Of a DNA stretch of 52,505 nucleotides, positions 7,275 through 50,300 are shown one piece after another. Both the position numbers and the translations under genes were made by a program. This DNA is from Candidatus Omnitrophota bacterium (GTDB lineage Bacteria > Omnitrophota > Gorgyraeia > M55B152): positions 1 through 52,505 of the forward strand of contig JAGYNU010000002.1 in NCBI GenBank assembly GCA_018399975.1, written 5' to 3'. Position 1 is the stretch's first letter, and every line of letters begins with the position of its first letter. Below the pieces are notes generated by a model. That model made no database searches. It saw only the letters and a program-made list of their open reading frames with translations, and had not been told where the DNA came from.

Positions 7275-7760
7275 TTAATATGTTATTGCTATTCGTTTAT
7301 CTCTTTCTACCTGTTCTAAAATATCTCCGTCTTCTTTATATTTCTTTAATAAAATATGAGTAACTGTTCCACTAACACCTTCCATAGGAGCCAACTTTTC
7401 CGCCACAAAATTAGATATAGTATGTATATCTTTTCCACAAACTGTAAGTAACAAATCATAAGTTCCAGAAAGTAAATAACAACTTACAACTTCAGGAAAT
7501 CTATAAATCTTCTCCGCTAAATAATCAAATCCTTTATTTTTTTGCGGAACCACATTAACTTCGATTAAAGCTCTTATTTCTTCTGAATCCGATTTCAATA
7601 AGTCTTTATTTATAACTGTCTTATATCTTACAATGACCCCAGCTTCTTCATATTTTTTAATAGCTTTCTTGATTCTATCTACCTTTTTATCAGTAACTTT
7701 AGCTATATCTTCAGGCGTCATTTTAGCATTCTGTTCTAATAACTCTAATATTTCATCCAT
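7275..7760 (-). CDS. Lrp/AsnC-family transcriptional regulator
   Basis: N-terminal HTH (LELLEQNAKMTPEDIAKVTD) and a C-terminal AsnC-type domain. A strong GGGAGG SD precedes ATG 7760. Confidence 0.75.
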   Translation of the reverse strand: MDEILELLEQNAKMTPEDIAKVTDKKVDRIKKAIKKYEEAGVIVRYKTVINKDLLKSDSEEIRALIEVNVVPQKNKGFDYLAEKIYRFPEVVSCYLLSGTYDLLLTVCGKDIHTISNFVAEKLAPMEGVSGTVTHILLKKYKEDGDILEQVERDKRIAITY

Positions 7761-7800
7761 TATAAAACCTCCCTTAATTTACTCACTTCGTTTGTAAATA

Positions 7801-7922
7801 CGCAGATTGGCACAGATTTTTAAAACACCACACAAGATTAGCACAGATAAATGATCAAGATACAATTATTTAATATTCAAACTAATACTTTTATTTGGTC
7901 ATTGTAATTTGGTTATTCTCAT
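7801..7922. repeat. ~125-bp conserved repeat core, copy I (CACAGAT words ... ATTCTCATG)
   Basis: Aligns with 17089-17229 and 27921-28050 with only a few substitutions or small indels. A partial copy lies at 41840-41890. Confidence 0.9.
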
Positions 7923-8185
7923 GTCCTATGTCCTAGGTCCTATGTCCTAGGTCCTATGTCTTGCTACTTGCTACTTGCTACTTGTTACTTGTTACTTGCT
8001 ACTTGTTACTTGCTACTTGTTACTTGTTACCTGTTACCTGTTACCTGTAACCTGTAGCTTGTAGCTTGTTTTTCGTCATTCGTCATTCGCCTGCCTGCCG
8101 GCAGGCAGGGATTTCGTCATTTGTTTGTTACTTGTTACTTGTTACCTGTTACCTGTAACCTGTAGCTTGCAGCTTGTAGCTTGTA
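7922..8185. repeat. Phase-locked tandem heptamer arrays (TGTCCTA > CTACTTG > TTACCTG > TAGCTTG), split by TCGTCAT words and a palindrome
   Basis: 21 consecutive in-phase 7-mers at 7922-8068. A second array lies at 8123-8185. The region ends 10 nt before the stop codon at 8196. Confidence 0.9.
8090..8109. repeat. 20-bp perfect palindrome CCTGCCTGCCGGCAGGCAGG
   Basis: A second full copy lies at 17124-17143. Left-half copies lie at 17075-17088 and 27907-27920. It is absent from otherwise identical flanks at 28190-28200 and 41955-41965. Confidence 0.9.
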
Positions 8186-16853: not shown

Positions 16854-16868
16854 TACTTACTCCTTTTT

Positions 16869-16945
16869 TAATGAGAACATAACTTAGCGAACAAAGTGAA
16901 GCTAAGTTATTTGTTCGAATTAAATCCGCCATTTTTTGTGGCGGA
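16869..16945. repeat. Leader hairpin module (TAATGAG - bulged 12-14-bp hairpin - GAATTAAATCCGCC-loop-GGCGGA), copy at the rpsM 5' region
   Basis: Stem GAACATAACTTAGC / GCTAAGTTAT(TT)GTTC. The same architecture with different stems is found at 22645-22716, 41211-41288, 41299-41381 and 45544-45597. Confidence 0.8.
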
Positions 16946-17088
16946 GGCTATCTACTTCGTTTGTTTTTTAGATCAATTAGGTCAATCAGACTTCAGACAA
17001 CAGAGAACAGACAACAGATATCAAACTTCGTATCACAGAATTATGCATTTGCTTGTTTCGTCATCCATCATTCGCCTGCCTGCCGGCA

Positions 17089-17229
17089 AACACAGATTAT
17101 CACAGATTTTTAAAAGCTACACACCTGCCTGCCGGCAGGCAGGGATTATCACAGATTAATGATCAAGATACAATTATTTAATATTCAAACTAATACTTTT
17201 ATTTGGTTATTGTAATTTGTCATTCTCAT
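17089..17229. repeat. ~125-bp conserved repeat core, copy II (carries the 20-bp palindrome at 17124-17143)
   Basis: Aligns to copies I and III, except that an internal segment is replaced by GCTACACA plus the palindrome. Confidence 0.85.
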
Positions 17230-17420
17230 GTCCTATGTCCTATGTCCTATGTCCTAGGTCCTATGTCCTATGTCCTACTATGTCCTAGGTCCTATGTCTT
17301 GTTACTTGTTACTTGTTACTTGTTACCTGCTACCTGTTACCTGCGACTTGTAGCTTGTAGCCTGTAGCCTGTAGCCTGTAACTTGTAGCCTGCAACTTGC
17401 AGCCTGTAGCTTGTAGCTTG
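17229..17420. repeat. Tandem heptamer array, 27 units with one 3-nt slip
   Basis: Direct reading. It has the same order of word families as 7922-8068 and 28050-28178. It ends 2 nt from the rpmJ stop codon. Confidence 0.9.
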
Positions 17421-17422
17421 TT

Positions 17423-22622: not shown

Positions 22623-22644
22623 CCCTATTTCTCCTTTAATGTTC

Positions 22645-22716
22645 AATGAGGTCATAATTTACGGAATTTTGTCGTAAATTATATGACCAAATTAATCCGC
22701 CAATTTTTATGGCGGA
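22645..22716. repeat. Leader hairpin module, copy at the rplF 5' region
   Basis: AATGAG, then stem GGTCATAATTTACG / CGTAAATTAT(AT)GACC, then AAATTAATCCGCC-loop-GGCGGA. Confidence 0.8.
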
Positions 22717-22881
22717 TGCTATCTACTTCGTTTGTTTTTTAGGTCAATTAGAGCAATTAGAAATTTTTCCCTTTCTATTTTTCCCTTTCGGCTTTCAGCT
22801 ATGAGCTTTTAACTATGAACTAAGAGCTCATTTATTTTTGTGGCGGAAGCTAAAAACCCATTTATCCTTATAACGAATAAT

Positions 22882-27828: not shown

Positions 27829-27920
27829 TTTATCTCACTTTGTTTGATAGAACACAGATTAAAGTTTACAGATTACAATAAAAGACTTTCTAATATCTGT
27901 CTTCCGCCTGCCTGCCGGCA

Positions 27921-28050
27921 AACACAGATTATCACAGATTTTTAAAACACCACACAAGACTAGCACAGATTAATGATCAAGATACAATTATTTAATATTC
28001 AAACTAATACTTTTGTTTGGTTATTGTAATTTGTTATTTGTCATTCTCAT
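27921..28050. repeat. ~125-bp conserved repeat core, copy III
   Basis: Aligns to copies I and II. It is preceded by the half-palindrome at 27907-27920. Confidence 0.9.
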
Positions 28051-28384
28051 GTTCTAGGTCCTATGTCCTAGGTCCTAGGTCCTATGTCCTATGTCTTGCT
28101 ACTTGTTACTTGTTACCTGTTACCTGCTACTTGCAGCCTGCAGTTTGTAGCTTGCAGCCTGCAGCTTGTAGCTTGCAATTCGTCATTCGTCATTCTGATT
28201 TCGTCATTTGTTTGTAACTTGCAATTTGCAATTTGTTTGTAATTTGTTATTTGTCATTTGTAATTTACTTGTATCTTGTATCTTGTATCTTGTTACTTGT
28301 ATCTTGCCTGCCCCGTAGCACCCGCAGGGTTGGTACGGAGTTTTCTGTTTTCTGTTTTCTGTCTTCTGTTTTCTGTTTTCTGTC
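28050..28384. repeat. Heptamer arrays (TGTCCTA > CTACTTG > TTACCTG > CAGCCTG > TCGTCAT words > TGCAATT/TGTAATT/TGTATCT), one GC hairpin (28311-28340), then a TTCTGTT array abutting the rplW stop
   Basis: The 7-nt period is readable over more than 250 nt. This is the spacer between rplW and rplB. Confidence 0.9.
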
Positions 28385-28669
28385 TTATGTTACATCTATA
28401 GTATGTCCTTTTTCTAAAGTTACTATTGCCTTTTTCCAATCTCGTCTTTTTCCTTCTTTAAAACGCACTCTTCTCTTTTTGCCATACATATTTATAGTAT
28501 TAACATTTTTCACTTTAACAGAATATATTTTTTCGACAGCTTCCTTTACCTGTATTTTATTAGCAAATTTCTGGATAACAAAAAGGTATTGATTGTCCTG
28601 TAGCATTCGAGTCCCCTTCTCAGTTCTCATCATGCTAAATAAAATATCATAACAATCTTCTTTCTTCAT
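28385..28669 (-). CDS. rplW: 50S ribosomal protein L23
   Basis: Motifs TEKGTRMLQDNQYLFVIQKFANK and WKKAIVTL. Confidence 0.95.
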   Translation of the reverse strand: MKKEDCYDILFSMMRTEKGTRMLQDNQYLFVIQKFANKIQVKEAVEKIYSVKVKNVNTINMYGKKRRVRFKEGKRRDWKKAIVTLEKGHTIDVT

Positions 28670-33436: not shown

Positions 33437-36400
33437 TTATTTATCATTTACTGTTTCTTTTTCTTGCTCATTATTAGAATCTTTCTGTTTTTCAATTTCT
33501 CCTATTAACGAAGAAACATCTTTCTTTACCTTAATTTCACGATTTTGCCTAAATCCTGTCCCTGCAGGAATTAAATGTCCCATTATAACATTTTCTTTAA
33601 GTCCATACAAGTTATCAGTTTTACCACTTGCAGCTGCATCCGTTAAAACTCTTGTTGTTTCCTGAAAACTAGCTGCAGATATAAAACTTTCTGTAGTCAA
33701 AGACGCTTTGGTAATTCCTAATAATAAAGGAGACGCGCTAGCCGGTTTCCCCTTATTTTCTCTAACTTTTTGATTTTCTTCTTTAAAACAAAATTTATCG
33801 ATATGTTGTCCAGGTAAAAAATCAGTATCTCCAGGGTCTTCTATCTTAACCTTTCTAAGCATTTGTTTTATAATTAACTCAATATGTTTATCATTTATTT
33901 TAACACCTTGTAATCTATAAACTTCTTGAACTTGATCTAATAAATATTTCTGCAATTCTTTTTCACCGCGTATGTTAAGGATATCATCAGGAACTATTGG
34001 ACCATCGGTTAAACGGTCCCCACTTGAAACCTTATCGCCTTTATATACATTTAAATGTTTTCCATGTGGAACCAAATACTCCTTTTTCATTCCAGAAGGC
34101 GATTGAATTATAACCCTTCTTTGCCCACGTTTAGCACTACCAAATTCCACTACACCATCGATTTCACTAATTACTGCGGGGTTTTTTGGCTTTCGGGCTT
34201 CAAACAGTTCTGCAACCCTTGGTAATCCTCCTGTAATATCTCTAGTTTTGGTAACTTTTCTAGGAGTTTTTGCCAAGATAGTCCCAGCTTTAACTTTTTG
34301 ATTTTCCTTTACTGCGATATGAGCTCCAGCTGGTAATGGATAAATAGCCACAACATTATTCTTTTTATCCAAAATTAATATCTGCGGATGGAAATCCACA
34401 GAATGTTCTATAATAACTTGTCCAGTTATACCTGTAGCCTCATCAATTTCTCTATGAGAGGTCTTACCATCAACAATATCCTCAAATTCTATCTTACCTT
34501 CTACTTCTGTTAGTATAGGAGACGAATAAGGATCCCATTCTACAAACTTATCACCTTTTTGAACTTTATCTGACTCTTTTACATTTAAAAATGCACCTTG
34601 TGGAATAACATGTCGTTCTAATTCAATGCCTTCTTCATCATTTATACTAATTTGAGAATTTCGATTAAGAACTATAAACTTTTTCTTTGAAACAGAAACT
34701 ATTCTTAATCCATGAAATACTATTTTCCCATCATGCTTAGATTCTATAAAAGATTGCTCCACAATTCTACTAGCAGTTCCTCCAATATGAAAAGTTCTCA
34801 TAGTTAACTGAGTACCAGGCTCTCCAATTGACTGAGCAGCAATTACACCTACAGCCTCTCCTGCTTCTACAAGACGACCATTTGATAAACTAGTACCATA
34901 ACATTTCGAACAAACGCCCCTTGAAGCTTCACAGGTTAGAACACTTCTAATTTTTATTTTTTCGATACCTAATTCCTGAATCCTATTTGCTTTCTTCTCT
35001 GTTATAACTTCACCCGATTTTACTATTACTTCATCTGAAACAACATCAACTATGTTATCAGCAGCAACTCTACCTACAATTCTTTCCTTTAAACTTACTA
35101 CTATTTCATCACCTTCCACGATGGCTTCTACATAAATGCCATTTAAAGTGCCGCAATCTTCCTCAGTAACAATAACATCTTGTGCAACATCGACTAAACG
35201 TCTTGTTAAATAACCTGAGTCAGCTGTTTTTAAAGCCGTATCAGCTAATCCTTTTCTACCCCCATGAGATGAAATAAAATATTCTAATGAAGTTAATCCC
35301 TCTCTAAAACTCGAAATAACAGGACTTTCTATAATTTCTCCTGAAGGTTTAGCCATTAAACCTCTCATACCTACTAATTGTCGAATTTGTTGTTTAGAAC
35401 CCCTTGCTCCTGAATCAGCCATCATAAATAAAGGATTAAATTTATCTAAATGTTTAAAAACTGAATCGGAAACCTGTTCTGTAACATGAGTCCATATATC
35501 TACTATTTTATTATAACGCTCCCCTGCCGTTATTATCCCTTGCTCGTAAGATTTCTCAACTTCGCCAACTTTTTTATAAGCTTCCGTTACAAGTTCTTCT
35601 TTATCTTCTGGAATAACTAAATCACTAATAGACAAAGAAGCTCCTGAATAAGTAGCTTCTTTAAAACCTTTTTCTTTAACTTTATCCAATAATTTAACAA
35701 CCGCATCATATCCAAATTCTTCATAACAGTTTTTTATTACATCAGATAAAGCTGATTTATTTAACAATTTGTTAACAAAATTCATTTCTTTAGGCAAAAT
35801 ATCATTAAAAAGTACTTTACCAACAGTTGTTTCAATTAATTCAGAATTTATTCTTACTTTTATACTTGCATGCATATGTACTGCTCCATCTTCATATGCA
35901 GAAATGACTTCAGCAGTGTTAGAAAACATTTTACCTTCGCCTTTAACACCTTTTCTCATCTTCGTAAGATAATACAAACCAAGCACTATATCCTGCGTTG
36001 GAGAAACAATCGGACCTCCATGAGCAGGAGAAAATATGTTGTTACTGGATAACATCATTAATCTGGCTTCCATTTTAGCTTCAGCAGATAAAGGAACATG
36101 TACAGCCATTTGGTCACCATCAAAATCTGCATTAAAAGGCGTGCAAACCAATGGATGCACTTTTATAGCTTTACCTTCTACTAAAATAGGCTGAAATGCT
36201 TGTATTCCTAATCTATGTAAAGTAGGTGCACGATTCAATAATACTGGATGCCCCTTAATAACCTCATCTAATATATCCCATACTTCTACTTCTGTACGTT
36301 CTACCATTTTCCGAGCGCTTTTAATAGTATGGACATGCCCTCTCTTCTTTAATTCCTTTATAATAAAAGGCTCAAATAATTCTAAAGCAATTCTTTTTGG

Positions 36401-39400
36401 CAAACCACATTGATGCAATTGCAATTCCGGCCCAATGACTATAACGCTCCTACCAGAATAATCTACTCTTTTACCTAATAGATTTTGTCTAAATCTACCT
36501 TGTTTACCTTTAAGCATTTCACTTAAAGATTTTAGAGGCCTATTACCTGCCCCCATAACGGGACGGCCATGTCTTCCATTATCAAACAAAGCATCAACAG
36601 CTTCCTGTAACATCCTTTTTTCATTTCTAATTATTATCTCAGGAGCATTAAGTTCCATTAATTTCTTTAGGCGGTTATTTCTATTAATCACTCTTCTATA
36701 CAAATCATTTAAATCACTAGTAGCAAATCTCCCTCCATCTAAAGGAACTAAAGGCCTTAAATCCGGAGGGATAACAGGAATAACGTCCATAACCATCCAA
36801 GATGGTTCATTCCCTGACTTTTTAAAAGATTCTACAATTCTTAATCTTTTCAATACTTTTTTTCTAACTTGTTTACCACGTTTTCTCTTAGCTTTACTAT
36901 GCAAATCAGTTGCTAATTCATTTAAATCTAAATTCCCCAACAATTCTCTTATAGCTTCTGCTCCCATTTTAGCAGTAAAGCTTTTACTATATTTAGCCTT
37001 TGCCTCTCTATATTTGTTTTCTGATAATAAATCTCCTGTTTTAAAAGGACTATCTCCCGGGTCTATTACACAATACTCCTCGTAATAAATAACCCGTTCT
37101 AATTGTCTCATACTCATGCCTAATAAAGCTCCCATTCTAGAAGGCATAGTCTTAAAAAACCATATATGAGAAACAGGAGAAGCAAGTTCTATATGCCCCA
37201 TCCTTTTCCTTCTGACATCAGATGTGGTAACTTCAACCCCGCATCTGTCGCATATTATCCCTTTATTTTTTATTCTCTTATATTTTCCACAATAACATTC
37301 CCAGTCTTTGGTAGGACCAAAAATCCTTTCGCAAAATAAGCCTCCTTTTTCTGTTTTTAATGTTCTATAATTAATAGTTTCTGGTTTTGTTACTTCACCA
37401 TGAGACCAAGATCGAATCACATCAGAAGAAGCTATATTTATACGTATAGAATTAAAATCACCATCTTTTGATATAGAATCTTTGTCAAAATCTTGCTCTG
37501 TACGAATATCTAAAGCCAAACCCATAAGTTCTTTAATCAATACATTAAAAGATTCAGGTGTCCCTGTTTGCAAAGAACAATCGCCTTTTACAATATTCTC
37601 GTATATACGAGTGCGTCCTTTAACATCATCACTCTTAACTGTCAATAACTCCTGTAACATATAAGCAGCACCATAAGCTTCAAGTGCCCATACCTCCATT
37701 TCCCCGAATCTCTGCCCTCCGTATTGAGCTCTACCTCCTAAAGGCTGCTGTGTAACCAAAGAATAAGGGCCAATAGAACGAGCATGAATCTTTTCATCAG
37801 CTAAATGTATTAACTTCAATACATACATATAACCAACGGTTATTTTCTGGTCAAAAGGCTGTCCTGTTAAACCATCATAAAGTATAATTCTTCCATCTTC
37901 TGGCAACCCAGCCTTTCTTAACAATTCTTTTATTTCTTCTTCATTAATACCTCCAAAAACAGGCGTAGCTACATATTTATTTAATATCTCAGCTGCCCAT
38001 CCTAAATGAGTTTCTAAAACCTGTCCTATATTCATACGCGAAGGAACCCCTAACGGATTTAAAACCATATCAACTGGAGTTCCATCTGGTAAAAATGGCA
38101 TATCTTCTTCAGGCAATATTCTGGCAACAACCCCCTTATTGCCATGTCTACCAGCCATTTTATCTCCCACAGACAGCTTTCGTTTACTTGCTATATAAAC
38201 AACCACCCGTTTTATAACCCCTGGTGGTAATTCATCTGCTTTTTTCACCTTATCTATTTGTCTTTCTTGTTCATAAGTCAAATCATCTATTTGATCATTA
38301 AATAATCTTAAAACTTTCTCGATTTCTTCATTTATATCATCATTTTTTAATTCAATTTCATCTACATCACAATTGACTAATTTTTTAATATCAGTTTTAG
38401 TTATTTTCTTTCCCTTTTCAATAATAGGCTTACCTGTATTAATATCAAGTAAATCAGCAGCTAATGTATGGCCTTCTATTATTTCCCCTACTCTACTAAT
38501 TTTCCCCTTTAAAATATCATCAATTTTACCTTGATATTCTTCTTCAATTTCTTTTATACGAGCTCTTTCTTTAGACCTTTGAGATTTAGTGCGAGCAGGC
38601 TCCTTTCTGGAAAAAACTTTTGTATCTATAACGATACCTTCTACACCAGAAGGAACTTTTAAAGAAGCATCGCGTATATCTCCAGCTTTTTCGCCAAAAA
38701 TAGCTCTTAACAATTTTTCTTCTGGAGTAAGTTCTGTCTCCACCTTAGGAGTAATTTTCCCTACCAAAACATCTCCTGACTCTACTTTAGCTCCTACCCT
38801 AATAATCCCATCTTCATGTAAATCTTTTAAAGCTTCTTCTCCTACATTAGGAATATCTCTAGTAATCTCCTCTGCCCCTAATCTAGTATCTCTAGCTTCA
38901 ATCTCAAATTCTTCAATATGAACAGAAGTATAAACATCATCTTTAACTAACCGTGAACTAACTAAAATAGCATCTTCAAAATTATGTCCATGCCAAGACA
39001 TAAAAGCTACTAAAACATTTTTACCTAAAGCAATTTCTCCTTCTTTTGTAGCAGGTCCATCTGCTAATATATCTCCTTTTTTTACCTTAGCCCCAATAGA
39101 TGTCACTGACCTTTGATTAATACAAGTATTGGCATTAGAACGTTTAAATTTTTTTAGTTTATAATCTGTAGAACCAACTGTTATAGTACTACCATCTATA
39201 TAATTTACATTACCAGAATTTTTAGCTATAATTAAAGCTCCTGAATCTCTTCCAACTTTTTCCTCCATGCCGGTTCCAACCAATGGTGGTTCAGGAAATA
39301 ATAACGGAACAGCTTGACGTTGCATATTAGCTCCCATAAGAGCACGGTTTGTATCATCATGTTCTAAAAAAGGAATCAAACTGGCATCAACGCTAACAAT

Positions 39401-41194
39401 CTGTCTGGGAGAAACATCTATATAATCTATTTCTTTAGGAGATACACTAATAACATCCTGTTTATACCTACATTTTACTTGTTTATCCAAAAATTTTCCC
39501 TTATTATCTAACCTTGCATTGGCTTGAGCTATAATTTTGTTATCTTCTATATCAGCAGTTAAATACTCAACCTTTTTTGTAACTATACCTTTTTCAACCT
39601 TTCTATAAGGAGATTCCAAAAAACCCAATCTGTTAACTTTAGAAAATGTAGTTAAAGTTGTAATTAAACCAATATTAGGGCCTTCTGGAGTTTCAATAGG
39701 ACAAATCCTTCCATAATGCGAATGGTGAACATCACGGACTTCAAAACCAGCTCTTTCTCGGCTTAACCCCCCTGGGCCTAATGCACTAAGTCTACGTTTA
39801 TGTGTAGTCTCAGCTAAAGGATTAGTCTGATCCATAAATTGTGACAATCTACCTCTACCAAAAAAATCTCTAATTACCGATGATACTAACTTTGTATTAA
39901 CCAAGTTTTGAGGCATCATAGTCTCAGTATCATATATATTCATTCTCTCCCTAGCAGAACGAGCTACTCTCGCTAAACCTACCTGTATTTGATTAGCTAA
40001 AAGTTCGCCAACTGTCCTTATTCTCCTATTACCTAAATGGTCAATATCATCTACTTCTCCCTCTCCTCTTCTTAAATTCAAAAGATATTTTACAGCTTCA
40101 ATTATTACTTTTTTATCTAATTCTCTTTTATCATCAGAAAAATTTGTATTAAATTTTCGATTAATAATAAACCATCCAACTTTGCTCATATCATACCTTT
40201 TGGAGTCAAAAAACATTCTATTTAACAAAGATTTGGCATTTTCTTCAGTAGGAGGGTCTCCTGGGCGAAGCTTTCTATACAATGCCAACAAGGCTTCTGT
40301 TTGATTTTTGGTATTATCTTTCTCAAAGGAATTTCTAATTTCAACAAAATCATTACTAACTAATTTTATTTGCTTAACTTTTACATTTTTTAACTTGTTT
40401 CTAATCAACTTATTGGTAATTTTAGTTAATGCCGGAACAACTATCTTCTCCTTCTTTTCACCATTTTTATCCTCTAATATTGTTTCTTTAATAGGTTCTG
40501 CAAGCACTTTATCTAAATATTTTTTCCATTGTGAACTCCTCTTTATACTTACATTTTCTATTCCGCATATCTCTTTTAAAATATCTTGATCAGTCGAATA
40601 CCCAAGAGCACGCAAAAATGTAGTAAAAACAAATTTACGCCTTCTATCAATATAAACATTTAATCTATTTGATTTATCAAATTCAAATTCTATCCATCCG
40701 CCTCTATAAGGTATAATACGAGCAGAAAATATACTTTTCCCTCTAATTCTAGTTGTTTCACCAAATGACACTCCAGGAGATCTATGTAATTGATTAACAA
40801 CGACTCTATCATCGCCATTTATAATAAAATTACCTTCTTCGGTCATTAATGGCAAATCTCCAAAATAAACTTCTTGTTCTTTAATTTCTTTATCAGAACG
40901 TAATCTTATTTTTGCTTTTAAAGCACCTGCATAAGAAAAACTTCTTTCCCTAGCTTCTTCTTCACTATATTTAGACCTATCTATAGTGTAACTAATAAAT
41001 TCTAAAATATATTTACCATCAAAACTCTCTATGGGAAAAATATATTCAAAAATAGCCTGTAAACTTTTATTTTCCCTTTTCGTTTTAGGAACATCAAACT
41101 GTAAAAAATCCTCATATGACTCCACCTGAGTTGCAACTAAATTTGGCAAGCTAAAAACTTCTTTTGTTTTACCAAAATTTAGTCTTGTAATCAT
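33437..41194 (-). CDS. rpoBC: Fused DNA-directed RNA polymerase beta-beta' subunit (2585 aa)
   Basis: One uninterrupted 7758-nt ORF. Residues 1 to ~1234 carry beta motifs ([27 protein letters not shown]). Residues from ~1247 carry beta' motifs (zinc [14 protein letters not shown], catalytic [12 protein letters not shown]). The linker [12 protein letters not shown] is encoded at ~37455-37495. AAGGAGAGG SD precedes ATG 41194. Confidence 0.9.
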
Positions 41195-41210
41195 AATTAA
41201 TCCTCTCCTT

Positions 41211-41511
41211 TAATGAGACCATGATTTACACGACTATAAGGAGTGTAAATCATATGGTCGAATTAAATCCGCCAATGTTTGTGGCGGATATAGCCCACTA
41301 ATGAACACATGATTTAGAGAGTTCAAGCGAATCTAAATCATATGTGTGAATTGAATCCGCCGTAGCTTTAGCGTAGGCGGAAGTTCATAATTTACGGAAA
41401 TCCTGTCCGCCAATGTTTGTGACGAAAGCATATAACTTAGCGAATCCTTCGATTTTACTCAGGATAAACAAAGTGAAGCTAAGTTATATGACCGAATTTT
41501 ACCCGCCAAAG
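41211..41511. repeat. Four tandem leader hairpin modules (two full, one truncated, one long-loop) in the rplL-rpoBC spacer
   Basis: Module positions are 41211-41288, 41299-41381, 41385-41428 and 41429-41511. Each has a bulged hairpin with its own stem sequence plus a CCGCC-loop-GGCGG hairpin. Confidence 0.8.
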
Positions 41512-41712
41512 CTAAGCACGAAAAAAAGTAGATTAGCGTAGGCGAAAAACACTGAACCCTTTTAGGGTGAAGTGTCAAAAGATATATAAAACCAAAGATA
41601 CTTCGCTTTCCAAGCTCAGTATCCCTACCCGCCAATGTTTATGGCTGGAATCCCCACGTTTAGATTTCAAAAAAAAACTGTGTTTCTATGTTCTATGTCT
41701 GTTTTCTGTTTA

Positions 41713-41839: not shown

Positions 41840-42056
41840 AAACCACAGATTATCACAGATTTCTAAAACCACACAAGATTAGCACAGAAATTGAAACCTG
41901 CAGCCTGAAGTTTGCAGCATGTAGCTTGAAGCTTGCAGCTTGTTTCTTTTCGTCATTCGGATTTCGTCATTTGTCATTTGTTTTCTTTCTGTTTTCTGCC
42001 TGCCCCGTGAAATCTTATTTCTACGGGGTTATCTGTCTTCTGTCTTCTGAATAAAC
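41840..42056. repeat. Partial core, TGCAGC-type heptamers, TCGTCAT words, hairpin CCCCGT-N14-ACGGGG (42003-42028) and TCTGTCT units abutting the rplL stop
   Basis: Direct reading. The hairpin recurs as its exact reverse complement at 49998-50023. Confidence 0.85.
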
Positions 42057-43990: not shown

Positions 43991-44153
43991 ACTGGTTTCT
44001 GGTTACTGGTTTCTGGTTTCTGGTTACTGGTTTCTGGTTACTGGTTACTGGTTTCTGGTTACTGGTTACTGGTTACTGGTTTCTGATTTCTGGTTTCTGG
44101 TTACTGGTTACTGGTTTCTGGTTTCTGGTTTCTGATTTCTGGTTTCTGGTTTC
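43991..44153. repeat. Tandem heptamer array ACTGGTT/TCTGGTT/TCTGATT (~23 units)
   Basis: Direct reading. It fills the whole rplK-rplA spacer and encodes the last 26 codons and the stop codon of the rplK ORF. Confidence 0.95.
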
Positions 44154-44585
44154 TATTATTTCTACCCCCATACTTCTAGCAGTTCCTTTAACTGTTTTAA
44201 TAGCAGATTCTAAATCTACCGCGTTTAAATCTTCCATTTTTTCCTTTGCTATCTTTTCTACCTGATTTTTAGTTAAACTGGCAACTTTTTCTTTATTAGG
44301 AACTCCAGAAGCTTTTGCTATACCACATTCTTTTTTTATCAAAACAGGGGTAGGAGGATTCTTAACTACAAAAGAAAAACTCCTATCTGCATAAATTTCT
44401 AATACAACAGGTAAAGTTAAACCCGGCCTATCTTTAGTTTGTTCATTGAATTGTTTGCAAAAATCCATTATTTTTACACCATATTGGCCTAAAGCAGGAC
44501 CAACAGGCGGCGCAGGATTCGCTTGCCCCCCTGGACAATAGAGCTTAAGTTTAGCCATTATTTTCTTTTTTTTCTTTTTAGCCAT
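44073..44585 (-). CDS. rplK: 50S ribosomal protein L11 with 26-aa repeat-encoded C-terminal tail
   Basis: Motifs [14 protein letters not shown] and [12 protein letters not shown], then [25 protein letters not shown] read from the heptamer array. Confidence 0.93.
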
Positions 44586-45447: not shown

Positions 45448-45466
45448 GACTATTTATATCTGACAG

Positions 45467-45541
45467 CAGGTGAGGCAGGACTTGAACCCGCAACCGTCGG
45501 ATTTGGAATCCGATGCTCTAGCCAAATTGAGCTACTCACCT
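45467..45541 (-). tRNA. trnW: tRNA-Trp (anticodon CCA)
   Basis: The reverse complement folds as a cloverleaf: acceptor AGGTGAG/CTCACCT, anticodon arm TCGGA-TTCCAAA-TCCGA, T-loop GGTTCAAGTCC. No encoded 3' CCA. Canonical position before secE. Confidence 0.9.
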
Positions 45542-45543
45542 TT

Positions 45544-45597
45544 TAATGAGTACATCATTTAGCAAATCTAAATAAAGCTAAATGATATGCACGAATT
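45544..45597. repeat. Leader hairpin module abutting the 5' end of tRNA-Trp
   Basis: TAATGAG, then stem GTACATCATTTAGC / GCTAAATGAT(AT)GCAC, then GAATT. It lacks the CCGCC hairpin. Confidence 0.75.
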
Positions 45598-45642: not shown

Positions 45643-45830
45643 AACCCCACGGGGCAAGCCCTGTGGTACCTTTATGTACCCGTCTTCGCCAAACACTTAT
45701 TGTGTTTGGCTTCGCCGAGGTTATCCGCCAACACATTTAGGTAGCTCTTTCATTTGGTAACATCTCGCCGAAGCATAACTTTCGCATTCATCCATGGGTA
45801 AACCCGTGGTTTTCTGCGAAGGCAGATAAA
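45643..45830. repeat. Multi-hairpin interspersed element, copy C (188 bp, internal 35-bp deletion)
   Basis: Collinear with copies A and B, but lacks the segment between the two CACGGGGCAAGCCC direct repeats. Confidence 0.9.
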
Positions 45831-45894
45831 ATTAGGTGCTAAGTTAATTAAACTAAAGACTTAAGTTTCTCACCATACTACCTAAATATAAGTT

Positions 45895-46159: not shown

Positions 46160-46202
46160 AACCCCACGGGTAAACCCGTGGTTTTCTGCGAAGGCGGATA
46201 AA
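46160..46202. repeat. Multi-hairpin interspersed element, mini copy D (43 bp)
   Basis: The left end AACCCCACGGG is joined directly to the right end TAAACCCGTGGTTTTCTGCGAAGGCGGATAAA. It abuts the tuf stop codon (46203) with zero spacing. Confidence 0.85.
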
Positions 46203-49719: not shown

Positions 49720-49860
49720 TTCAGTATAACCTCCTTCTTTAGCGTAAAGTATCTAATTAACTTTTTTTTACAATAGATATACATAACTTTAACTCCAATA
49801 AAATAACATAAATTAATACCAAAATCAAATATAATGTATTGTATATTAATTTCTAATTAC

Positions 49861-50300
49861 TAATTGACCTAATTGACCTAAATTAGCTCATAGCTCTTAG
49901 CTCATAGTAAAGAAAGAAACAAGAAAGATACAAGATACAAGAAAGATACAAGTAACAAGTCGCAGGTAACAGGTAGCAGGTAACAAGTAATAAGTTACCC
50001 CGTAGAAATAAGATTTCACGGGGCAAGCAAGATACAAGATGCAAGATACAAGAAAGATACAATAACCAAGATACAAGATACAAACAAATTACAATATACA
50101 ATAAACAAATTACAAATGACAAATTGACCTAATTACTTTAAAACAAGTAGAGAGTAGAAAGTAGGAAGTAGAGAGACAAGGACATAGCCCGTGAACCAGA
50201 GATTTATTTTATAAATCACGGTTCAGGGCTAGGGTGAACCGTACTTCGTTCTGGTTCCCCCTAGGACATAGGACATGAGAATTACAAATGACAAATCAAG
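49861..50300. repeat. Repeat island in the divergent spacer
   Basis: Contains AATTGACC words and AGCTCAT heptamers. The CTTGTTA/CCTGTTA families and TGTCCTA-ATTCTCATG appear here as reverse complements. Also contains hairpin 49998-50023, AGTAGAG heptamers (50146-50187) and two GC hairpins (50192-50264). Confidence 0.85.

Follow-up and report, generated by a model that had tools for sequence, protein, structure and literature searches.

The window, i.e., the whole 52,505-nt stretch of Candidatus Omnitrophota DNA analyzed here, covers a ribosomal-protein/rpoBC region in which every gene lies on the minus strand, as judged from the ORF list and from tRNA and Pfam scans. In the fused rpoB-rpoC ORF (33437-41194, minus strand), Pfam detects Rpb2 domains and, after them in the same frame, Rpb1 domains. 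The best L6 homologues that carried a source name were mostly labelled Candidatus Omnitrophica/Omnitrophota, with one labelled Acidimicrobiia, and the closest of them was 66% identical.

An earlier note had described a family of hairpin modules in this region, and all five copies that it listed were recovered, in position as well as in geometry. It had read them on the plus strand. Because the genes are all on the minus strand, the module is the reverse complement of that reading, and the 2-nt bulge, which had been correctly seen at one fixed place, therefore lies in the 5' arm and not in the 3' arm. Read in gene direction, the module spans about 80 nt and consists of a short GC hairpin (P1: TCCGCC, a 9-14-nt loop, GGCGGA) followed by a long hairpin (P2). 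A covariance model built from 25 copies and run over the window with filters off returned four full modules (two before rpoBC, one before rpsM, one before rplF) and one P2-only copy before tRNA-Trp. These copies and the pieces associated with them are as follows.

33437-41194, minus strand: fused rpoB-rpoC ORF of 2585 aa, the gene downstream of the tandem array
41207-41288, minus strand: intact module 1, before rpoBC (91.9 bits, E = 4e-19)
41295-41381, minus strand: module 2 of the rpoBC tandem (66.4 bits, E = 3e-13)
41383-41426, minus strand: truncated module, P1-like TTCGTCACAAACATTGGCGGA and only the 3' arm of P2 (CCGTAAATTATGAAC) (16 bits, E = 0.14; sequence reading)
about 41429-41549, minus strand: decayed module, P2 arms GGTCATATAACTTAGC/GCTAAGTTATATGC, 36-nt loop insertion, broken base (weak partial model match at 41432-41489)
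41624-41648, minus strand: lone P1-like remnant, CCAGCCATAAACATTGGCGGG (pattern and model scans)
16865-16945, minus strand: intact module before rpsM (S13), P1 at 16925-16945 (93.2 bits, E = 2e-19)
16946-16990, minus strand: extension of ~45 nt upstream of the rpsM P1, TTGA[CT]C-N16-TAGATAGC, common to the rplF copy (sequence comparison)
22640-22716, minus strand: module before rplF (L6), within the S8-L6 spacer (76 bits, E = 2e-15)
22717-22761, minus strand: matching conserved extension upstream of the rplF module (sequence comparison)
45545-45597, minus strand: P2-only copy, without the GC hairpin P1, before tRNA-Trp (41.5 bits, E = 2e-7, model positions 25-77)

In the module closest to rpoBC, P1 occupies 41268-41288 and P2 with its basal helix 41209-41267; the module ends 12 nt from the start codon (41194), with a Shine-Dalgarno (SD) sequence, GGAGAGG, at 41202-41208. 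The second module has a 14-nt P1 loop (P1 at 41356-41381) and an intact P2 stem, and its basal helix is broken (TTCAAT vs ATTAGT). What had been reported as four modules in tandem before rpoBC is thus two intact modules (41207-41288 and 41295-41381) plus decayed pieces, of which the one at 41429-41549 retains P1-like TTCGCCTACGCTAA...TTTGGCGGG with an insertion and lacks the TCATTNAA tail. Across the array, intactness drops with distance from the gene. The other full modules end 11 nt from the rpsM start (16853) and 17 nt from the rplF start (22622), the latter having one base deleted from its basal helix, so that full modules before rpsM, rplF and rpoBC lie 11-17 nt from the start codon with the SD between. 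In the P2-only copy the basal helix is cut to 3 bp; tRNA-Trp (45466-45541) begins 3 nt from the copy and 9 nt from the stem proper. The extension at 16946-16990 is promoter-like by eye, and a sigma-70 scan makes no call there. The P1 pattern CCGCC-N9-GGCGG, allowing up to 2 mismatches, occurs 6 times in the window against 0.87 expected.

Extent, architecture and covariation of the family

To extend the family, the seed pattern GAATTNAATCCGCC-N7-16-GGCGG was scanned over GTDB species genomes, which gave 119 loci; L-numbers below are labels of retrieved genomic or metagenomic loci. The whole module was present in about 33 of the loci, from Candidatus Omnitrophota MAGs, and in a few from MAGs labelled Planctomycetia or PVC, and the remaining loci were chance matches within GC-rich genes. 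Since full modules occur in MAGs labelled Planctomycetia/'PVC group' (L054, L071, L102, L119 and L066), either the family extends past Omnitrophota or these bins are mislabelled. The collection of further copies by covariance model, which the earlier note had proposed, yielded 50 copies at E <= 1e-5 from the window together with 288 kb of Omnitrophota-type loci and, after three more loci were added (328 kb), 67 copies at E <= 1e-3, all intergenic and of one geometry. No copy was found at E < 0.01 in a 632-kb control of 86 loci from other phyla, each containing the seed pattern. P1 conservation and copy density are biased upward because most loci were fetched with a P1-containing pattern, and P2-only copies are under-counted because the model misses the L120 copy at E < 0.01.

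Searches for known relatives returned little. At the gathering threshold, Rfam reported only two tRNAs in the window, and at E <= 10 nothing meaningful between 41150 and 42100, so the Rfam search suggested earlier matched no family to the module. An exact-sequence search with the window's S13 protein found no record. BLAST of one module against 72,556 plasmids gave no match, and no description of the element was found in the literature on Omnitrophota/Omnitrophica/Velamenicoccus repeats and hairpins. A known MITE or IS end, which the earlier note had considered as another identity for the module, was likewise not matched, in searches whose scope included no IS database. A metagenome scan with the RpoBC N-terminus recovered 54 loci of 39-56% identity, with a single model match (L122) and a P2-only hairpin recognized by eye in L120; most of these RpoBC relatives are without the family near rpoB. 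In one MAG, identical tandem modules occur at the start of one contig (L003, 1-130) and the end of another (L037, 3031-3165), and the module repeat appears to break short-read assemblies.

P2 is an interrupted hairpin of 19-21 bp that runs, from its 5' end, through TTNAAT, TC, a 4-bp helix, the 2-nt bulge and a 9-11-bp helix with its loop, and returns through TC to ATTN'AA. TTNAAT and ATTN'AA form a 6-bp basal helix, which is closed off by an essentially invariant TC/TC internal loop; the flanks previously recorded as TAATGAG and GAATT(A/G)AAT are the sequences that pair with each other to make it. The 4-bp helix is hypervariable. The first base of the bulge is A in about three-quarters of the copies, and in L030, L042 and L063 the bulge is expanded into a small extra hairpin. 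The 9-11-bp helix has an invariant TTA/TAA core and the stem consensus ATAACTTAC, and because the stems share this core, the P2 stem sequence is not free. The loops, which had been called unrelated, do differ within the window, but family-wide most of them start with T-Y-S and end with YTC (by eye). P1 is usually TCCGCC...GGCGGA and can be replaced by other palindromes, and the extra copies found by the model carry other hairpins there. The P2 loop tolerates insertions, and other palindromes are nested in P2 loops (L100, L050, L079) or in bulges.

Two further repeats were observed. A GC-rich palindrome of the CCTGCCTGCCGGCAGGCAGG type, a second dispersed element, has 7 occurrences against 0.02 expected; it lies in the window at 8093-8106, 17078-17091, 17127-17140 and 27910-27923, in Omnitrophota contigs L096 (5255) and L180 (9081), and nested in the P2 loops of L100, L079 and L050. 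The element ATC(C/T)GCCTTCGCAGAAAACCACGGGTTTACCC(G/A)TGG is repeated after tuf and rpmG (46160-46200 and 45800-45835, minus strand), and its CCGCCTTCGC start resembles the TTCG-type P1 variants of L019 and L057.

Thermodynamic folding of single modules from the window reproduced this structure, with z-scores of -4 to -7 and the SD and start region unpaired. The earlier note had allowed that additional copies might carry stems that do not pair; in an alignment of the 50 best copies, from more than 25 genomes, 95.9% of cells paired and double changes were found in 22 of 26 pairs, with the caveats that the alignment was fitted to the model and that the copies are not independent events. None of 500 shuffles reached any of the covariation measures, sliding the partner by 1-3 columns lowered pairing to 31-42%, and RNAalifold, run unguided, recovered the identical fold. 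At the basal N:N' pair, A:U and U:A each occur in 17 copies and C:G in 10; genome-specific homogenisation of this pair was ruled out, as single genomes hold mixed states. The 4-bp helix has more than 25 different sequences, which are nearly always complementary. The earlier view that structure rather than sequence is selected therefore stands as far as one geometry with covarying stems (22/26 pairs) is concerned, but the stem sequence is also constrained, and nothing observed ties the pairing to RNA.

The strand on which the pairing might be selected was examined through its mismatches. In P2, 95% of cells are Watson-Crick, and G·U is as rare as A·C mismatch (a comparison over only 36 mismatched cells). 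The mRNA strand has 13 G·U pairs and the antisense strand 23, or 18 and 18 when counted in module orientation; the wobble signature of mRNA selection is absent in P2. Furthermore, in reversed copies TC/TC and the A-first bulge of the 5' arm still follow the module's orientation, so that the mRNA of these copies shows GA/GA and a 3'-arm bulge; the constraint on these features is independent of the direction of transcription.

Placement at gene boundaries and mosaic distribution

About 41 of 65 copies are followed by a long same-strand ORF whose start lies -8 to +35 nt from the end of P2; in nine of the ~41 the ATG stands directly against the helix without an SD. Forward copies end -3 to +17 nt from the start codon, and in many copies the upstream stop codon is only 3-19 nt before P1, so that the module fills the intercistronic spacer. 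Throughout, the P2 end of the module is turned toward the coding sequence and the P1 end away from it. In ten copies the orientation is opposite to that of the neighbouring gene, whose stop codon falls, in eight of the ten, at a constant register (-6 or -7) within the basal helix. Forward copies within operons must be co-transcribed, since there is no room for a promoter downstream of them, and by estimate from whole-module folds they would place a hairpin of about -20 kcal/mol or stronger just 5' of a free SD. Core genes with adjoining modules include rpoBC, ribosomal proteins, EF-Tu and dnaJ; within the window, 4 of ~60 spacers carry the module.

Units are found singly, in tandem (window 41207-41549; L003/L037; L078) or as inverted doublets. 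A three-hairpin unit, consisting of a reversed P2 with the stop codon inside, P1, a forward P2 and a start codon, occurs in L064 between S10 and L3, EF-G and EF-Tu, and S7 and EF-G, between L18 and S5 in L182, between IF1 and L36 in L178, after rplL in L122 and L120, and in L075, L030 and L088. In L088 a near-consensus extended -10 promoter, recognized by eye, is found ahead of the unit, which therefore forms a 5' UTR. In L120 (5752-5808) and L122 (907-965), which are related metagenome contigs, the reversed P2 right after the rplL stop is orthologous, with identical stems and differing loops, a pattern that fits purifying selection in place.

The modules are patchy among relatives. In the closest relative (L6 66% identical), which has the same gene order, the S8-L6 spacer (35 nt) and the L36-S13 spacer (50 nt) are both without the module, and only a decayed P2-like hairpin is present, at another place. 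For one and the same set of operons, L064, L178, L182 and the window differ in which junctions hold a module, and other relatives carry modules at other junctions of those operons or have none. Two L064 spacers are near-identical, with a handful of differences, over ~178 columns spanning the reversed P2 and P1, and their forward P2 types differ. The P2 type GACCATATGATTTA... that precedes rpoBC in the window is found again upstream of an unrelated L019 gene and of rpsM in L178, and the window's own rpsM P2 is of a different type from its rpoBC P2. A non-tandem repeat of 130-190 nt (…AAAAGTATTAGTTTGAATATTAAATAATTGTATCTTGATCATTAATCTGTG…ATCTGTGATAATCTGTG…) is present in three window spacers on the minus strand (16946-17240, 27829-28060 and 7761-7925), upstream of rpsM, rplB (L2) and an Lrp/AsnC-type regulator gene (ORF 7275..7760). 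This leader is 'filled' with P1-P2 before S13 and 'empty' before ORF 7275..7760 and L2; the L6 spacer, which shares only its ~45-nt promoter-like extension, is 'filled' too. The module thus behaves as a mosaic dispersed repeat and not as a vertically conserved leader.

The window spacers are also packed with heptanucleotide tandem arrays (plus-strand units ATGTCCT, CTTGTTA, CTTGTAG, GTTTTCT and CTGGTTT x23) at 1342-1381, 7921-8185, 16994-17018, 17228-17421, 28049-28391, 41891-41942, 43992-44154 and 49860-50172, with the same succession of units in three spacers. They look similar to the heptamer STRR arrays of filamentous cyanobacteria.

Interpretation and relation to known systems

We consider that the modules of Omnitrophota-type genomes probably form a new family of palindromic intergenic elements akin to REP/BIME/REPIN. 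Copies would be gained, lost and recombined at the DNA level, and a putative structure-specific enzyme would read the folded hairpin, which would explain why geometry is conserved and Watson-Crick pairs are strict on both strands. Once within operons, copies would be co-transcribed into stable hairpins at cistron boundaries that leave the SD free, most likely serving as mRNA-end protectors, processing punctuation or translation-initiation insulators. At rpoBC, successive additions or duplications may account for a single intact module nearest the gene and increasing decay in those farther away. Against this reading, the loci examined yielded no transposase, no target-site duplication and no empty/filled site at strain level (tblastn with an approximate IS200 TnpA query, a weak test, returned nothing over the retrieved loci), and copies within a genome are diverse rather than near-identical, as they would be in an active REPIN or MITE burst. 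The tight, oriented placement at start codons is unusual for REP-type elements and points to a role in expression over selfish spread.

That placement raises the possibility, which we hold to be a minority one, that P1-P2 is a cis-acting RNA leader, kept where it evolved as a 5'-UTR or intercistronic structure whose pairing is selected in mRNA; its possible roles would be those of a 5' stabiliser, an RNase III/RNase E processing site or a site bound by a global translation factor. It would account for the position and orientation toward start codons with a free SD, the very strong covariation, the invariant internal loop and bulge, which suggest specific recognition, and the survival of the gene-proximal copy alone as intact in the rpoBC array; P2 would amount to about two helical turns of dsRNA with an internal loop, and the GGA|UUNAAUUC junction of the two hairpins resembles an RNase E-type site by eye. 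However, G·U pairs are not enriched on the mRNA strand, reversed copies present the exact complement of the forward features in mRNA, orthologous spacers are patchy and the nearest relative lacks the module, one copy precedes a tRNA, only 4 of ~60 window spacers are occupied, and Rfam has no matching family. Still less probable is a portable promoter, or alternatively a palindromic operator bound by a dimeric regulator, that acts on DNA and starts or controls the transcription of the adjacent gene. The 3' half of P1 and the 5' arm of P2 would supply sigma-70-like hexamers (TTGGCG/TTGTCA, 17 nt, TAACTT/TATAAC/TACAAT), and on reading the sequences several copies show such matches at a constant spacing; classical transcription-unit starts (rpsM, rpoB, tRNA-Trp/secE-nusG) account for three of the four window sites, and the upstream extension is conserved. 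Yet the candidate -11 A falls in a covarying pair (AU 30, GC 11, CG 3), so that what is conserved is the pairing rather than the identity of a -10 box, no site was called above shuffles by the sigma-70 scan, transcription from reversed copies would run antisense into the gene upstream, and the extended -10 of L088, seen by eye and not by the scan tool, precedes the whole unit. Half-sites of a protein-bound operator, for their part, need not covary.

It is about as improbable that the modules are folded single-stranded DNA sites for recombination or transposition by a tyrosine recombinase or HUH enzyme, forming cassette-like gene boundaries. The attC-like basal box, unpaired TC/TC spacer, extrahelical bases and insertion-tolerant variable loop are in keeping with this, as are the location between co-directional ORFs, the strict Watson-Crick pairing and a polarity independent of transcription; against it, RYYYAAC/GTTRRRY core sites are absent, the modules flank essential genes of ribosomal operons whose order is conserved, the retrieved loci showed neither an integrase nor a HUH gene (a weak test), G·T is favoured on neither strand, and the variable 4-mer has no guide-like match in the flanks. 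An IS200/IS605-like guide was rejected on the last ground, comparison of the P2 4-mer with flanking DNA having shown no enrichment over permutations. Consensus scans for sigma-70 promoters and terminators made no consistent call on P1/P2. As an intrinsic terminator, the rpsM P1 alone passed the scan and P2 has no U-tract, and termination 0-17 nt ahead of the start codon would shut the gene off; this candidate was rejected. Sigma-54, K-turn, dif/Xer and SD/anti-SD mimic candidates were dropped by eye, for misfits of spacing or consensus.

A bolder proposal, which we regard as unlikely though worth stating, is that P2 is the recognition site of a putative structure-specific enzyme in a system of Omnitrophota cistron punctuation, whether an endonuclease or a folded-ssDNA system. 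In the former case, cleavage of operon transcripts would yield monocistronic mRNAs capped by hairpins, a bacterial parallel to the punctuation of organellar transcripts; in the latter, attC/REP-like but sequence-unrelated recombination or transposition would operate around housekeeping genes. A dedicated enzyme that reads geometry would in either event be a new RNA-processing or DNA-mobility system. Omnitrophota are an uncultivated lineage, and a repeat within a few nucleotides of core-gene starts and stops must shape its mRNAs. The covariance model can be used for genome annotation and the family as a marker of lineage dynamics, and the repeat offers an explanation of expanded spacers and assembly breaks. 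The family also offers a clean natural test of whether hairpin covariation arises from RNA function or from DNA-level propagation.

The preferred reading, of a dispersed palindromic family, can be set beside several known systems. Hairpins such as the RNase III sites of phage T7 early transcripts and the E. coli rplL-rpoB spacer, or the ompA-type 5' stabilisers, are comparable in form: modelled as RNA, P2 would likewise give ~20 bp of interrupted dsRNA between cistrons, including the L7/L12-rpoB spacer, and a hairpin directly 5' of an accessible SD. Those hairpins are single-locus, whereas the module is a dispersed family without an RNA-strand signature. In integron attC sites, structure is conserved over sequence, and P2 shares with them the basal box, the unpaired central spacer (TC/TC), the extrahelical bases of the bulge, the variable loop at the tip and the location between co-directional ORFs. 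In contrast to attC, the basal helix (TTNAAT/ATTN'AA) lacks the core-site consensus, no integron platform is present, and the modules lie within S10/spc/alpha/rpoBC operons of conserved order.

The Correia/NEMIS, ERIC, RUP/BOX and SMAG elements are small palindromic non-coding MITE-like repeats whose transcribed hairpins affect RNA stability and processing, in the case of Correia by RNase III. Like them, the modules lie near genes, would be transcribed into hairpins, can carry promoter-like hexamers and are patchy between relatives. They differ in that no target-site duplication or parent IS was seen, in their strict polarity to coding sequences, and in an architecture conserved phylum-wide while sequence varies; the TTNAAT and ATTN'AA flanks are inverted complements (N/N' as A:T, C:G or T:A) and not the direct repeats that mark a MITE.

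The REP/BIME/REPIN elements of Proteobacteria, which are associated with RAYT, are high-copy bulged extragenic palindromes that are co-transcribed into mRNA hairpins. The present family resembles them in its many copies of a short, imperfect, bulged palindrome that is extragenic only (67 model matches), in its occurrence singly, in tandem clusters and as inverted doublets about a linker, and in its mosaic motif combinations. REP elements have been located near stop codons (PMC12306157). The modules, too, often lie a few nucleotides from stop codons, would be co-transcribed and show hairpin-preserving substitutions. Unlike REP, P2 is longer (50-60 nt or more) and AT-rich, the GTAG-type 5' tetranucleotide is absent and the flanks are TTNAAT-TC and TC-ATTN'AA, copies are diverse within a genome, and no RAYT was found in the retrieved loci (a weak test); most copies adjoin start codons, always with P2 toward the coding sequence, whereas REP adjoins gene 3' ends. 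Because GTAG, target duplication and attC core sites are all absent, we place the family outside REP, MITE and attC. Altogether, the module most likely represents a previously undescribed family of the dispersed palindromic kind, whose closest counterpart in behaviour is REP/BIME/REPIN.
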